From positions 1 to 17,230 of the forward strand of contig JAGVWJ010000026.1 of assembly GCA_018304385.1 (NCBI GenBank): a stretch of DNA of 17,230 nt, in the 5' to 3' direction. The position numbers and the translations under genes were made by a program. A model generated the notes under the pieces. It was not told the origin of the DNA. It worked only from the letters and a program-made list of their open reading frames with translations, and searched no databases. The stretch comes from Candidatus Micrarchaeota archaeon (GTDB taxonomy: Archaea > Micrarchaeota > Micrarchaeia > Anstonellales > Bilamarchaeaceae). Shown in pieces: positions 9,138 to 14,777 of this stretch. Positions within the stretch are counted from its first letter, which is position 1; each line of letters opens with the position of its first letter.

Positions 9138-9240
9138 TATGTGCAAGTCTGAGTTTTTCCAGCTTCCAGTGGAAGCCGTCGTTTTCTTAGGCAACCCCCA
9201 GAAGGCGCTTGCCATTGCATTCACAAGAGCGCGCCGGCAG
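9138..9240 (-). ncRNA. Candidate structured small RNA or 5' leader divergent from tRNA-Gly, family unidentified
   Basis: 56% GC over 9141-9240 (hand count) between AT-rich flanks, with several stems. It starts ~25 nt downstream of the palindromic TTTAAA at 9266-9271 read on minus. Confidence 0.35.
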
Positions 9241-9264
9241 TTCAATAGTTTCTTTGCGGAATAA

Positions 9265-9271
9265 TTTTAAA
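9265..9271. promoter_or_regulatory. TATA-like box upstream of tRNA-Gly, possibly bidirectional
   Basis: TTTTAAA about 30 nt upstream of tRNA position 1. Confidence 0.55.
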
Positions 9272-9315
9272 CTGTTACTTCTAAATCTTTATTTCTTATT
9301 GCGGCTGTAGTCTAG

Positions 9316-9463
9316 GCCCAGCCAATTTCAGTTACCAGTTTCGAAACGCGGGACAGAAAACTGAATCTGGCTAGCGCAACCCCAAAACATGGATTACTTG
9401 TTTTGGAGCTCGACCTTTTTGACTTTAGAAACATATATGTGTTGAAAAGGTCGAAATGGATAA
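9316..9463 (+). other. tRNA intron in the D-loop (position 15/16), 148 nt
   Basis: Relaxed bulge-helix-bulge: central helix GUCU(9310-9313)/GGAU(9458-9461), bulges AG|G and AA|C. The exact junction is inferred from this geometry. Confidence 0.75.
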
Positions 9464-9505
9464 CGGTAGGATTCGAGATTGCCAATCTCGTGACCCGGGT
9501 TCGAA

Positions 9506-9565
9506 TGAACTTTTTTAGGTAAAAAAGTTCACAAAAAACTGCTTCGTTAATGAAGCATATGAAAA
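9506..9565 (+). other. tRNA intron in the T-loop (position 59/60), 60 nt
   Basis: Central helix UUCG(9500-9503)/UGAA(9560-9563), bulges AA|U and AA|U, with the T-stem as the flanking helix. Confidence 0.82.
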
Positions 9566-9579
9566 TCCCGGCGGCCGCA

Positions 9580-9598
9580 TTTTTATTATTTTTAGTTT
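9580..9598 (+). terminator. T-rich archaeal-type terminator after tRNA-Gly
   Basis: TTTTTATTATTTTTAGTTT directly follows the discriminator base. Confidence 0.6.
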
Positions 9599-9635
9599 CC
9601 GGTTCCCAGTTTTGAGTCTTTGGTTGTGGGTTTTG
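9594..9635. repeat. Degenerate heptamer tandem array (6 units)
   Basis: AGTTTCC GGTTCCC AGTTTTG AGTCTTT GGTTGTG GGTTTTG. Confidence 0.6.
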
Positions 9636-9744
9636 TATTACATAAGAGGAACATATAAACGGCCGACGTGGCATAAGTAGTACATAAAACCACGTCTTTA
9701 TAGAAACTATTTGTAGTGCACGGCTTTACTATAATGAGAAAATA

Positions 9745-10929
9745 TTAAGTCGTTACAGTGCACTCTGAAAGGAATATACTTGCTTGTTTATCATTTGAAA
9801 TTTCTATTAGCATTTTAGCAACTTCCTTATCATCTTTTAGTTCTGTTATCTGCATTTTTTTATACAGATTACGTATGTAATTTTTTTCGTTTGCATATGC
9901 GTCCCTATTAAGTTGCATGATTATTTTCTGTCTACATTGTTTGTTTTCAGAATAAAAATCACCAAAATTTTCAAGTGGTAAGTCGCTATCTATCTGCCTT
10001 CTATCAACACTAACATTAGATATAATTATCTCTCCAACTAACTTGTTCTTATAATCCCTAAGTGTTGCTTTTTTGATTTCGAAATTGCATAAACCTTGGT
10101 CAAAGCTGTCGTGCAGTGCCCTTGCAAGCATTTCTTCAAACCACAACGGATGTACTTTTAGGTAATATAAATTAAACACGTGCGTGTGTTCATGATACTC
10201 GCCAGCATTACAGTTCTTTGGGTAATACCTATCAAATACATATATTCTGTCTCCTTCTTCCATGAATCCACTTTCAATGCTATCCGCCTTATCTAGCTTT
10301 TTTCTCTCTATGCTTTGAAATGCATAATTCTTATATGTACAAGCATCATTTTCTATACTGCACATTCTTGCTAATTCTGAATCAGATGTTAGTATTATAA
10401 AATTAATAAGCCTGCTCTGCACATCCTTATTTTTATATAAGAATTCAGGGCTGACATTTAGATATTCTGATATGTATGGGTGCTCAATTGCATCTACAAA
10501 CCTAGCAACTAGATAGCACGAGCGTATTACATCTTCTCTTTTTATCTTTTCAGCTTCTTTTGGCCCAGGGCAATCATATAAAACATAGCTTCCATAAAAC
10601 ACAATACGCTGTGCGTTTGATTTTTTTGCTTTGTTTATTGTTGTTTCTGGTTTAGCCTCATATAATTCAAAGCATCTATATGTAGAATTTTCAAAAAGCC
10701 CTTGTGGTGCACTGTAAGAAGAGCAATCTAAATAATTAGTTTTCCCTGGCCTTTTTATTTCAGCTATGGGTTCTGGGATTTTTGTTATAGGTTTTATTTC
10801 AGTATCATTTTTCCATATTGTTTTATTATTTTCTATTTTTTCAACAGTTTTTACTTCCTTATTGTCTACTGGTTCATTCTGGATGCATCCCAATACTAAC
10901 ATAATAATGATAATTATGATAACTCGCAC
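9745..10929 (-). CDS. Predicted lipoprotein with HExxH zinc-metallopeptidase motif (gluzincin/MA-clan-like)
   Basis: Hydrophobic N-terminus ending LVLG-C (lipobox-like). HEHTH at 10194-10180 is followed by PLWFEEMLA, matching the HExxH...WxxExxA pattern. GTG start. Confidence 0.65.
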   Translation of the reverse strand: MRVIIIIIIMLVLGCIQNEPVDNKEVKTVEKIENNKTIWKNDTEIKPITKIPEPIAEIKRPGKTNYLDCSSYSAPQGLFENSTYRCFELYEAKPETTINKAKKSNAQRIVFYGSYVLYDCPGPKEAEKIKREDVIRSCYLVARFVDAIEHPYISEYLNVSPEFLYKNKDVQSRLINFIILTSDSELARMCSIENDACTYKNYAFQSIERKKLDKADSIESGFMEEGDRIYVFDRYYPKNCNAGEYHEHTHVFNLYYLKVHPLWFEEMLARALHDSFDQGLCNFEIKKATLRDYKNKLVGEIIISNVSVDRRQIDSDLPLENFGDFYSENKQCRQKIIMQLNRDAYANEKNYIRNLYKKMQITELKDDKEVAKMLIEISNDKQASIFLSECTVTT

Positions 10930-11020
10930 GATTCGTCACCTATCTAAGTGCAATGCGATAATTATTTAAAGACTATTAAGTCTTGTGTTAGATAATATTT
11001 TCTTATCTAATGTGACGATT

Positions 11021-11830
11021 ATGACCACTCTTTTATTAGAAGACATTGCAAAACAGCTCGATATATTTAATGTTAGCGAGCTATTGCCTCATGAACAAAC
11101 TGTTCCACCTAATTTAAAGCGATTAAAAGAAGCAATGCTTAATATTGGGCAGCTTGTTGATCCAATTATTGTAGATAAAGAAACAAAGGTAGTACTTGAT
11201 GGCAATCATCGCCTAAAGGTTTTACAAATAATTGAATGTCCTCTTTCTGTTTGTCAAACAGTAGAATACAAAGATCCAAAAATAGTAGTTGGAACTTGGT
11301 ATTTGGCAGTTAATAAACCAATAGAAGATATTCTAAAAACTAATATCAAAGTTGAAAAGATAGATTGTGATGAGGGTAAGAAAGCACTAACTAACTCTAA
11401 AGCTCCGTTTATGGCAGTCTGTAAAAAGGACGGTAACCAAAATGCATGTTTTATAGAACCAGGTAGCTATAGGCTAAAAGAGCTTATAGAAGAGCAGAAC
11501 TATGTGCTTAGCAGTATGAAAGGGGATTTTGATATACGTTATATCCCAGATGATCAGTCTGAGGAGTATTTGTCAAAGGGTTACAGTGTATTTTTTAGAC
11601 GCGCATATACAAAAGACGAGATAATAAAAGCTGCTAAGGACCATAATCCATTTCCGCCTAAGTCAACAAGGCACATCATTCCAGATAGAATAATTAGATT
11701 AAATATGCGTTTAGGTTGGTTGCATGAAGAGAAAAGCGAAGCTCTTCGCCATTTAAATGAAATGCTTGCCAACCGTGTTTATAATGGCAATGTCCGACGC
11801 TATGTTGAACCTGTGATTGTTATATATTAG
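11021..11830 (+). CDS. serK: SerK-like free serine kinase (ParB/Srx-fold)
   Basis: PHEQ, VLDGNHR, GTWY, EEQ and YTKDEI...FPPKSTRHIIP are colinear with Thermococcus SerK motifs (PHEQ, DGHHR, YTWY, EEQ, TKEEV...FSPKTTRHVLP) as I recall them. Start is ATG 11021 or GTG 10985. Confidence 0.78.
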   Translation: MTTLLLEDIAKQLDIFNVSELLPHEQTVPPNLKRLKEAMLNIGQLVDPIIVDKETKVVLDGNHRLKVLQIIECPLSVCQTVEYKDPKIVVGTWYLAVNKPIEDILKTNIKVEKIDCDEGKKALTNSKAPFMAVCKKDGNQNACFIEPGSYRLKELIEEQNYVLSSMKGDFDIRYIPDDQSEEYLSKGYSVFFRRAYTKDEIIKAAKDHNPFPPKSTRHIIPDRIIRLNMRLGWLHEEKSEALRHLNEMLANRVYNGNVRRYVEPVIVIY

Positions 11831-13157: not shown

Positions 13158-14777
13158 ATGGAATTTACAGAAGAAGAAAAGAAAATCCTACAACAATTCA
13201 TGACTAATGTTGATAAGCCAATATTCGCATTAGTTAACTTGCCAGAGGTAGTAAAAGGAGCATTGTTTTCACGCTATTCGCGTACAACGAAATCTCTGAG
13301 GCGTGTTCTGTTAGAAGAGTTTATCCTTAAACCTGAGACTGGTTTTAAAGAAATAGTGAATTATCAGGTATCAAGCGGAAGCGCCCAAGCAGTTGCAATA
13401 AAAAAAGCAGAAGAATTTTACGATCGTGTGCTAGTTGGCTATGGGGATGATAGTGTTGCAGAGCTTGCAGGTGCGCATGTAGCAATCGAAGATGTAACAA
13501 ACATTGCAACTAAAATAATCGAGGATAGCCGCATTGGTTTAAGCCCATTGGAAAAAAGCACAAGATACGTTTATTTTGATCAGAAGCGCGATGGAAAATG
13601 GCCATATTACGAAGATCCAACTATCATGCAAGGCGAATTCGCTGCGCTTTACAGAGAAACATGCGATTTCCTATTTGAAACATACGCCAATCTAATTCCA
13701 AAGGTTTCTAAATACATAACCGATCTTTATCCAAAAGACGAATCAACAAGCGATCGCGCTTATAGCTCGAGTATTAGAGCGAAAACATGTGACCTTTTGC
13801 GTGGCTTATTGCCTGCATCAACCATAACAAATATGGGTTTGTTTGGAGATGGCCGCGCATATGAGTATTTACTTACAAAAATGTTTTCATCTAACCTACA
13901 AGAGATTCGCAATATTGCCGCAATGTTACAAGAGGAATTGCGTAGCGTTATTCCAAGTTTTGTAAAACGTGCAAATGACAACTACGGAAAGGCAATGCAG
14001 CAATACATGCGCGATATTGATCAAAACACAGTAAAGCTTGTTGAGATGAAATTAAAGAATTTCAAATTTGAGAAACAAGAAAAAGATGTTACACTCGTTG
14101 ACTATGATACTGACGGCGATGAAAGAGTCGTCTCTGTAATATTATATCAATATTCTAAAATTCCTCTTGAGCAGGCGCATATAATTGCAAAAAACATGTC
14201 TGATCAAGAAAAAGAAGAACTAATTGTAAGCTATGTTGGCAAACGCGCAAATCGTAGACATAAACCTTATCGTGCGTTTGAACATATATATTATACATTT
14301 GATATCCTTGCGAATTTTGGAGCATATCGAGATTTGCATCGTCATCGTATACTTACACAACAGCGCCAATTGCTTAGTTGTGATCATGGGTACACACTGC
14401 CAAAAGAGCTAGCAGATGCAGGATATGCTGATCAATTTAAGGCTGCAATGGACAAGGCGAGAGATACATATACTAAGATAGCAAAAGCAACGCCAGAACA
14501 TGCGCAATACGTTGTACCACTTGCATATAAAATTCGTTGGTACATGCGTATGAATCTACGTGAAGCCTGCCATTTATGCGAGTTGCGTAGCATGCAGCAA
14601 GGTCATCCTGATTATAGAAAGGTTGCTCAGGACATGTTCTCTGAAATAAATCTAGTGCATCCAATGCTTGGCAGACACATAATTTTTGTTGATATGAAGG
14701 AATATGCATTCGAGCGTTTGGAGGCAGAGAAGAAACTAGATAAGAAGCTAGAAGAGATTAAGAAGAAGTATAGTTGA
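13158..14777 (+). CDS. thyX: FAD-dependent thymidylate synthase, long two-domain form
   Basis: GYGDDSVAELAG, SPLEKSTRYV, LRGLLPA, RDLHRHR, ELRSMQQGHPDYR. 539 aa with duplicated Thy1 domains. Confidence 0.92.
   Translation: MEFTEEEKKILQQFMTNVDKPIFALVNLPEVVKGALFSRYSRTTKSLRRVLLEEFILKPETGFKEIVNYQVSSGSAQAVAIKKAEEFYDRVLVGYGDDSVAELAGAHVAIEDVTNIATKIIEDSRIGLSPLEKSTRYVYFDQKRDGKWPYYEDPTIMQGEFAALYRETCDFLFETYANLIPKVSKYITDLYPKDESTSDRAYSSSIRAKTCDLLRGLLPASTITNMGLFGDGRAYEYLLTKMFSSNLQEIRNIAAMLQEELRSVIPSFVKRANDNYGKAMQQYMRDIDQNTVKLVEMKLKNFKFEKQEKDVTLVDYDTDGDERVVSVILYQYSKIPLEQAHIIAKNMSDQEKEELIVSYVGKRANRRHKPYRAFEHIYYTFDILANFGAYRDLHRHRILTQQRQLLSCDHGYTLPKELADAGYADQFKAAMDKARDTYTKIAKATPEHAQYVVPLAYKIRWYMRMNLREACHLCELRSMQQGHPDYRKVAQDMFSEINLVHPMLGRHIIFVDMKEYAFERLEAEKKLDKKLEEIKKKYS

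Follow-up and report, generated by a model that had tools for sequence, protein, structure and literature searches.

Precursor transfer RNAs (tRNAs) of ARMAN-2 (Candidatus Micrarchaeum acidiphilum) are interrupted at noncanonical positions, the main text of Fujishima et al. 2011 (PMC3239211) describing an hBH intron at 59/60 in pre-tRNA-Cys(GCA), introns at 53/54 and 59/60 in pre-tRNA-Pro(GGG), and relaxed motifs with bulges of 1-4 nucleotides (nt). In the Thermoproteales, tRNA genes carry up to three introns at many positions and the splicing endonuclease has broad specificity (Sugahara 2008; Fujishima 2010, as cited in PMC4033280), and similar introns in different tRNA species have been read there as transposition (in the account given in PMC4033280). 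Catalogued archaeal tRNA introns measure 11-129 nt, with medians of 12-25 nt (PMC4090602), and stay under 100 nt in another catalogue (PMC4033280). The tRNA-Trp intron of Haloferax and other Euryarchaeota is long, lies at 37/38 and carries a functional box C/D guide RNA (as cited in PMC4090602), and Asgard tRNA genes contain hidden insertions, often in the D-loop and preferentially at splice-competent sites (bioRxiv 10.64898/2026.10.13.758758). Here we describe a tRNA-Gly(GCC) gene with two noncanonical introns at positions 9301-9579 of a 17,230-nt stretch of DNA (the window; contig JAGVWJ010000026.1 of assembly GCA_018304385.1) from a Candidatus Micrarchaeota archaeon. It is well supported as an instance of a known phenomenon, namely disrupted tRNA genes in Micrarchaeota with an epsilon2-type tRNA splicing endonuclease (EndA), with intron families as in the Thermoproteales.

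We consider it very probable that 9301-9579 is a functional, single-copy tRNA-Gly(GCC) gene whose introns, at 15/16 and 59/60, are spliced by the epsilon2 EndA and whose exons are joined by RtcB. The gene would be transcribed as a 279-nt precursor, which the homodimeric endonuclease would cut at two bulge-helix-bulge-type sites, one in the D-loop (15/16) and one in the T-loop (59/60). At 15/16, the 5' cut would fall in the bulge between the GTCT/ggat helix and intron hairpin A, and the 3' cut two bases beyond the helix in an unpaired stretch. RtcB would then ligate the three exons into the 71-nt tRNA, to which CCA would be added later, as it is not encoded in the gene. The exons of 15, 42 and 14 nt make up the 71-nt product, and introns account for 208 of the 279 bases (75%). 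When given the spliced sequence, ARAGORN reads a full-length cloverleaf of tRNA-Gly(gcc) with a 7-base-pair (bp) acceptor stem, a 4-bp D-stem, the anticodon loop TTGCCAA, the T-loop TTCGAAT and the discriminator base A. The original prediction, made by a model from the letters of the window and a list of open reading frames (ORFs), had three exons joining into a complete cloverleaf, with three-quarters of the gene intronic and neither intron at 37/38; its exon coordinates proved exact, and both the coordinates and the orthologs confirm the two sites.

A cloverleaf alone is weak evidence for such a gene. Holding the acceptor stem and T-arm fixed while a script removed one or two further stretches by a 4-bp helix rule, we obtained from 9301-9579 a total of 600 alternative products that ARAGORN accepted, with dozens of anticodons; the cloverleaf is therefore insufficient by itself, and the comparative data decide. 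A 41-nt exon 2 pattern (up to 3 mismatches) matched 10 of 150 genomes of the same order, exon 2 was identical in a third genome of the genus, and the same three exons were present at every ortholog locus inspected. Two orthologs have no introns, one in the same family (genome G063) and one in another family (G016). The G063 gene runs uninterrupted across both predicted junctions (GTCTAG-CGGTAGG and TTCGAA-TCCCGG) and is identical to our spliced product at 65 of 71 positions, whereas the G016 gene differs by two additional D-loop bases. The mature orthologs agree with this tRNA at 62-67 of 71 positions.

Across 11 orthologs, every stem cell (231/231) holds a standard pair, and five pairs have changed on both sides (4-67, 5-66, 6-65, 27-41 and 50-60 in gene numbering). 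The archaeal glycine identity set comprises G1-C72, C2-G71, G3-C70 and A73, and all four elements are invariant in these orthologs. This gene is under selection as a tRNA. The flanks are similar as well, with TTTAAA-type boxes resembling the one at 9265-9271 lying 30-45 nt upstream of most orthologs and a T-run directly 3' of about half of them. Intron sequences are unrelated between genera, and intron length spans 0-148 nt at 15/16 and 0-232 nt at 59/60. An intron at 15/16 occurs in 10 of the 12 tRNA-Gly(GCC) genes compared, this one counted (29, 29, 41, 46, 50, 52, 57, 95, approximately 134 and 148 nt), and one at 59/60 in some of them only (36, 43, 60 or 232 nt).

Two further features of individual orthologs were observed. 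Genome G109 has two tRNA-Gly(GCC) copies (L009 and L013, on contigs C25 and C43) with identical exons and an identical downstream flank of approximately 70 nt that carry different D-loop introns, 41 versus 95 nt, which looks like intron replacement after gene duplication. Downstream of the tRNA-Gly(GCC) gene at L005 (G101) and L012 (G016), at distances of 20-110 nt, are additional copies of its own 3' end (acceptor 3' strand and T-arm), which resemble attachment-site duplications left by elements integrating at a tRNA 3' end.

Splice motifs were judged by a rule with three elements: a 3-nt 5' bulge made of the final two exon bases plus intron base 1, a central helix between the four preceding exon bases and intron bases n-5 to n-2, and a second bulge made of the final two intron bases plus base 1 of the following exon. 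By definition, the complete motif has two 3-nt bulges, is cleaved after the second bulge base and is flanked by helices h and h'. In intron 2, the central helix consists of the 4 bp between TTCG (9500-9503) and tgaa (9560-9563), the bulges read AA|t and aa|T, the 5-bp T-stem serves as the outer helix, and the inner helix is replaced by a local 10-bp hairpin starting at intron base 2. The 59/60 motif is thus close to a canonical bulge-helix-bulge and agrees with its definition. The junction could also be written as 60/61, with an identical product, as T stands at both 9506 and 9566; the 4-bp helix arises only with the 59/60 reading. In intron 1, GTCT (9310-9313) pairs with ggat (9458-9461), with bulges AG|g and aa|C and correct spacing of the splice sites; a three-hairpin junction stands in for the inner helix, and the tetramer copies the true D-stem 3' strand (GGAT). 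The 4-bp helix with splice sites 2 nt away is retained by each of the nine orthologous D-loop introns (GGAT, GGAC, GGGC, GGGT or AGAC), and five of the nine have an inner helix of 6-10 bp. Because this spacing is kept and five orthologs retain an inner helix, we take the 15/16 site to be a conserved relaxed motif of the bulge-helix-loop type. When the fold is constrained to contain both motifs and to leave the bulges unpaired, its free energy is -91.5 kcal/mol, only 6.5 above the -98.0 of the minimum free energy (MFE) fold.

The gene might instead be spliced at slightly shifted boundaries or in a stepwise manner; intron 1, for example, might consist of nested introns removed in order, or be cut with bulges other than 3 nt. 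Intron 1 is indeed modular, its module A has a family of its own, and the MFE fold shows a 5-bp helix GTCTA/tggat with a 1-nt 5' bulge, a size within the 1-4 nt known from the main text of PMC3239211. However, the outer junctions are fixed by the intron-less ortholog, because the final product must equal its sequence, and the MFE fold reveals no internal bulge-helix-bulge motif in the long continuous hairpins. We regard such variants of the splicing route as improbable.

The splicing machinery expected for these introns is encoded in the genome, a metagenome-assembled genome (MAG) of 1.53 Mb in 65 contigs with 36.5% GC and 89% completeness. ARMAN-2 EndA is a chain of approximately 395 amino acids (aa) built of three units, with the catalytic residues Tyr236, His251 and Lys282 alongside Arg275 and Trp384; mutagenesis has assigned all five (Y236, H251, K282, R275 and W384) to catalysis or substrate binding, and Lys161 in an ARMAN-specific loop confers broad specificity and cleavage of relaxed motifs (PMC3488258). 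The enzyme cleaves both strict 37/38 and relaxed 59/60 substrates in vitro (main text of PMC3239211). Two genes of our genome match PF01974. One, at L001:865-2064, is an intact 399-aa EndA of the three-unit epsilon2 type carrying PF02778 and PF01974, which aligns over its full length with the ARMAN-2 enzyme (4fz2_A; E = 1.2e-129), keeps all five residues named above, and has the loop GTYKAAHR in place of ARMAN-2 GTYKVSEH, with the equivalent of Lys161 retained. The need for a relaxed-specificity endonuclease and a check of the EndA type had both been raised with the original prediction, and the answer is an ARMAN-2-type epsilon2 enzyme with triad and loop lysine intact. Its closest public copies (80 loci, 59-95% identity) belong to Micrarchaeota or Micrarchaeia MAGs, barring a few generic or mislabelled records. 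RtcB (PF01139; 339 bits) is encoded at the end of contig C51. The other PF01974 gene is a 161-aa endonuclease-like ORF (L002:1465-1950, minus strand, on G000 C53) with a weak catalytic-domain match of 35.6 bits.

Several points weigh against a functional, spliced gene. Two of the four central pairs of intron 1 are G-U, its outer helix and directly opposed inner helix are both zero, and the unconstrained MFE fold also pairs A14, shrinking the 5' bulge. We found no literature report of in vitro cleavage of a D-loop intron with the architecture of intron 1. The RtcB ORF is truncated by the contig end, and with an assembly 89% complete, an intron-less second tRNA-Gly(GCC) may sit on unassembled DNA. 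Finally, cleavage and ligation at both introns are steps that we infer from sequence.

In the assembly, a BLAST search with the exons and the spliced sequence found no second tRNA-Gly(GCC), only two other glycine tRNAs, and a genome scan for a GCC anticodon arm in tRNA context likewise returned this gene only; these searches answer the check for another copy proposed with the original prediction. GGC and GGU together occur at 37 per 1,000 codons, 56% of glycine codons. A decaying pseudogene, hit by two repeat insertions, left unspliced and functionally replaced by another gene, would be compatible with the minimal motif of intron 1, with the incomplete assembly, and with inserts from repeat families that have copies outside tRNA genes or modules in common with the genome-wide miniature elements. 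Against it, the exons are defect-free and show full tRNA constraint across 11 genomes, in many relatives inserts occupy exactly these two sites, always with the 4-bp helix and spacing, no other GCC tRNA was found to read the abundant GGY codons, and 21 of the 22 tRNA genes recovered from this genome by an anchor search (described below) share the same build and cannot all be dead. Decay is accordingly a very remote prospect in our estimate.

The gene is invisible to standard tools, as the original prediction had anticipated. ARAGORN reports nothing on the unspliced window, with or without anticodon-loop introns, and Rfam gives no match in 9200-9700, for the tRNA model at the gathering threshold or at E of up to 10, and none to self-splicing (group I/II) introns or any other described RNA family at the same E limit. 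The same holds genome-wide: ARAGORN finds two tRNAs by default and four with introns allowed, and the Rfam tRNA model four above threshold. An anchor search requiring a 7-bp acceptor stem, U8 and a T-arm, and allowing a T-loop intron, yields 22 plausible tRNA genes, 21 of which exceed mature tRNA length (99-342 nt) and 12 of which have T-loop introns of 39-202 nt. Almost the entire tRNA set of this genome is cryptic to standard tools. Two other approaches were too permissive: ARAGORN with anticodon-loop introns and lowered thresholds gave approximately 200 mostly meaningless calls genome-wide, which were set aside, and a splice-and-scan census (introns by the 4-bp helix rule, then ARAGORN) gave hundreds of products per locus, often with the wrong one first. 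The census is therefore based on anchor spans, with individual genes verified by exact coordinates.

Seen against this set, the tRNA-Gly(GCC) gene is typical of its genome. All three tRNA-Gly genes and tRNA-Thr(GGU) have a 15/16 intron. The tRNA-Arg(UCU) gene has a D-loop intron of approximately 45-50 nt, a 137-nt intron at 37/38 and a T-loop intron of approximately 175 nt. The description of the 148-nt intron as unusually long holds for the published range of 11-129 nt but fails locally, since introns of 137-232 nt are ordinary in the genome and genus; the site 15/16, likewise called unusual, is locally common, being occupied in the three tRNA-Gly genes, in tRNA-Thr(GGU) and in 10 of 12 tRNA-Gly(GCC) genes.

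The original prediction also foresaw a false ORF in the place of the tRNA gene. A 120-codon minus-strand ORF (9312-9674) does exist and has been deposited as a protein by gene callers; the entry forms a singleton cluster, observed on 9 contigs. Pfam gives no match, and a comparison with 75 genomes of the same family found no full-length relative, only short fragments, which correspond to other intron-repeat copies or to tRNA exons and of which about half are broken by stop codons. Nor is the frame conserved, as the syntenic locus in genome G154, of the same genus, has a different intron sequence there. That the ORF is a real small protein gene, with the tRNA-like pieces coincidental, has in its favor the open frame and its presence in public protein collections; given the singleton cluster, the nature of the fragments, the lack of a Pfam match and the G154 frame, we assign this next to no probability. 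The ORF looks spurious, an annotation artifact.

Both introns belong to repeat families. The 59/60 intron of tRNA-Gln(UUG) (C26:5708-5768) shares 97% identity over 61 nt with intron 2, whose first 46 nt match the 59/60 intron of tRNA-Gln(CUG) (C22:9468-9423) at 100%. Intron 1 is 84-86% identical over 80-88 nt to introns of tRNA-Thr(GGU) and tRNA-Arg(UCU) and represents a three-hairpin family with members at 15/16 in tRNA-Gly(GCC), tRNA-Gly(UCC) and tRNA-Thr(GGU), at 37/38 in tRNA-Arg(UCU) and in tRNA-Asp(GUC) of another genome of the genus (G121), and in pieces within G121 T-loop introns. Host tRNAs were verified with ARAGORN, except tRNA-Asp, which was read by eye. Among the 75 family genomes, this family is restricted to its own genus. 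Hairpins B and C are 80-90% conserved across the family, with a few compensatory changes. The terminal six bases are different in each copy, yet each time they pair with the four bases of the exon that precede the splice site (exon/tetramer pairs GTCT/GGAT, GTCT/GGAC, GCTC/GAGC, CTTC/GAGG and CTGT/ACGG).

Both hallmarks by which Thermoproteales-type intron families are recognized, namely high-identity introns in different tRNAs and the same family at different positions, are thus seen here. At the syntenic G154 locus (flanking proteins 73-82% identical), a diverged relative of intron 1 occupies 15/16 and a different 232-nt intron occupies 59/60; in the G121 tRNA-Gly(GCC) gene, the D-loop intron is unrelated and measures 50 nt, and a T-loop intron is absent. 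Because G154 and G121 carry different introns in the same gene, intron content within the genus turns over while the sites persist. On these comparisons, both introns would be selfish structured elements of multicopy families that move between tRNA genes and positions, and they probably persist as splicing renders them harmless. The route of movement and the absence of an intron function are what we infer from these patterns.

The termini of intron 1 module A recur outside tRNA genes. A mini-element of approximately 30-34 nt, consisting of GTGCCAGG, a short hairpin and CTAGCGCAACCCC, is present in approximately 34-39 copies in the genome, and the module A 13-mer at 9371-9383 has 26 exact occurrences genome-wide, or 39 with up to 1 mismatch. 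A crude open-frame test places 12 copies in sense and 8 in antisense orientation within long open frames, and 14 elsewhere. Members of the intron family have a long hairpin in place of the short one of the mini-element, and the sequence of this long hairpin varies between copies while pairing is kept. These placements point to a DNA-level miniature repeat rather than an RNA intron. A spliced mRNA mini-intron was considered and rejected, as the open-frame copies occur in both orientations and the hairpin lacks bulge-helix-bulge geometry. Examples of the mini-element are found at G000 C19:15169-15233, C62:39539-39568 and C33:39958 (minus strand); tandem copies follow a lipoprotein-like signal peptide, and another copy forms an 11-codon insertion near the N terminus of an aconitase-family protein. 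GTGCCAG and AGCGCAACCC recall two universal 16S rRNA segments, a resemblance that we take to be chance. Another repeated module, AAAC(T/G)GCCGACG plus a hairpin, occurs at 9650-9690 of the window, just 3' of the tRNA-Gly(GCC) gene, and also in spacers and within the long T-loop introns that other tRNA genes carry (C33:21115-21137, C20:60340-60370 and L108:1320-1345).

These introns owe their length to hairpin modules that are alike in kind to the miniature repeats scattered through the genome. It is conceivable, though we would put it forward only tentatively and as rather doubtful, that tRNA introns in these Micrarchaeota are born from, and enlarged by, the same miniature repeats that insert into protein genes and spacers. 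A hairpin element landing in a tRNA gene would survive if a 4-nt stretch at its 3' end could pair with the adjacent exon, as this pairing would create a minimal bulge-helix motif for the broad-specificity epsilon2 endonuclease. The intron 1 family would then be such an element caught midprocess, with mini-element termini on module A and only the terminal tetramer plus 2 nt retailored to each host (GGAT, GGAC, GAGC, GAGG and ACGG). The shared module and rematched tetramer suggest, without showing, this route of intron origin; if it is true, it would provide a concrete and testable route of archaeal tRNA-intron gain, a point that recent Asgard work left open.

Table 1. Features of the tRNA-Gly(GCC) locus and other disrupted tRNA genes of the same genome (positions are those of the window unless a contig label is given)
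Feature	Position	Strand	Description	Basis
TATA-like A/T-rich box (putative promoter element)	9265..9271	+	approximately 30-36 nt 5' of the mature end	read by eye from sequence
Exon 1	9301..9315	+	tRNA positions 1-15: acceptor 5' strand, U8, A9, D-stem 5' strand GTCT, A14, G15	
GTCT, exon strand of intron 1 central helix	9310..9313	+	mature D-stem 5' strand	MFE fold and rule-based check
Antisense ORF, spurious	9312..9674	-	120 codons, antisense to the tRNA gene	mechanical ORF list
Intron 1	9316..9463	+	148 nt, site 15/16; three hairpins, then a 3' tail ggat+aa pairing with the exon	
Intron 1 module A	9317..9383	+	long hairpin bounded by GCCCAG and CTAGCGCAACCCC	termini same as genome-wide mini-element
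Intron 1 hairpin B	9382..9406	+	CCCCAAAACA...TGTTTTGG; kept in 5 family members	MFE fold
Intron 1 hairpin C	9410..9454	+	14-bp stem; compensatory changes in the tRNA-Gly(UCC) copy	MFE fold
ggat, intron strand of intron 1 central helix	9458..9461	+	followed by aa (9462-9463), then the 3' splice site	
Exon 2	9464..9505	+	tRNA positions 16-59: rest of D-arm, anticodon arm, variable loop, T-stem 5' strand, T-loop 54-59	
Anticodon GCC	9481-9483	+	within exon 2	
Intron 2	9506..9565	+	60 nt, site 59/60; two hairpins, approximately 9507-9530 and 9540-9557	
Exon 3	9566..9579	+	tRNA positions 60-73: U60, T-stem 3' strand, acceptor 3' strand, discriminator A	
T-run, likely transcription stop	9580..9584	+	directly after the discriminator	read from sequence
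tRNA-Gly(UCC)	C40:56404-56150		introns of 137 nt at 15/16 and 47 nt at 37/38	verified
tRNA-Gly(CCC)	C3:4358-4457		intron of 29 nt at 15/16	verified
tRNA-Thr(GGU)	C62:26406-26678		introns of 141 nt and 60 nt	verified
tRNA-Arg(UCU)	G000 C20:60015-60446	+	432 nt, three introns, approximately 82% intron; verified	

Two neighboring ORFs deserve mention. A 394-codon minus-strand ORF without a Pfam match (9745-10929) lies in the interval that separates the tRNA gene from the next conserved one. It is absent from the G154 synteny, where the tRNA 3' end and the ortholog of 10985-11830 are only approximately 120 nt apart, and it may be an insertion adjoining the tRNA. Farther downstream, a plus-strand ORF of 539 aa (13158-14777) has a ThyX (Thy1) domain at residues 312-502 only, its N-terminal 310 residues having no Pfam match.

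These observations have implications for genome annotation. This gene is the sole decoder found for more than half of glycine codons, yet it is missed by standard tools and a false protein has been deposited instead. Because standard tools miss such genes, Micrarchaeota MAG annotations with very few tRNAs are probably wrong. Beyond what the literature consulted describes are the length of the introns, the recurrent 15/16 site, the family with a host-matched 3' tetramer, and the module held in common with a miniature repeat of coding regions.

Compared with the described systems, long, structured introns with a bulge-helix-bulge motif are shared with the tRNA-Trp genes of Euryarchaeota (as cited in PMC4090602). 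A box C/D guide RNA inside the long intron was considered and rejected here, with no C/D boxes seen by eye and no Rfam match at E of up to 10. As in the Asgard genes, the insertions are missed by standard annotation and the D-loop is a site of insertion; unlike those genes, in which there was no general sign of copying between tRNA genes, near-identical introns occur here in different tRNAs. The mini-element is like Rickettsia palindromic elements and coding insertions resembling miniature inverted-repeat transposable elements in lying inside open frames, in both orientations, and between genes; its link to module A is one of shared termini only. We know of no Rickettsia palindromic elements within tRNA introns.

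The locus shares with ARMAN-2 its phylum, an epsilon2 endonuclease, noncanonical sites including 59/60, more than one intron per gene and relaxed motifs, and in both cases, going by the main text of PMC3239211, disrupted tRNA genes escape default tRNA finders. In contrast to the ARMAN-2 introns assayed in that text, which are 13 and 25 nt long, those described here are 60 and 148 nt long with long hairpins, and neither a 15/16 D-loop intron nor shared intron families are described in it. With families of 137-232 nt versus the catalogued 11-129 nt, the size range of endonuclease-spliced tRNA introns would extend past the catalogued limit of 129 nt, and the D-loop site stays occupied across genera while its content turns over. 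Multi-intron genes, introns common to different tRNAs and a broad-specificity endonuclease are also features of the Thermoproteales (as summarized in PMC4033280), which belong to another phylum and have an (alpha-beta)2 rather than an epsilon2 enzyme. The Micrarchaeota would be a second lineage, after the Thermoproteales, with clear intron families hopping between tRNAs and positions, and one in which such families can be compared directly with a biochemically and structurally characterized endonuclease type.

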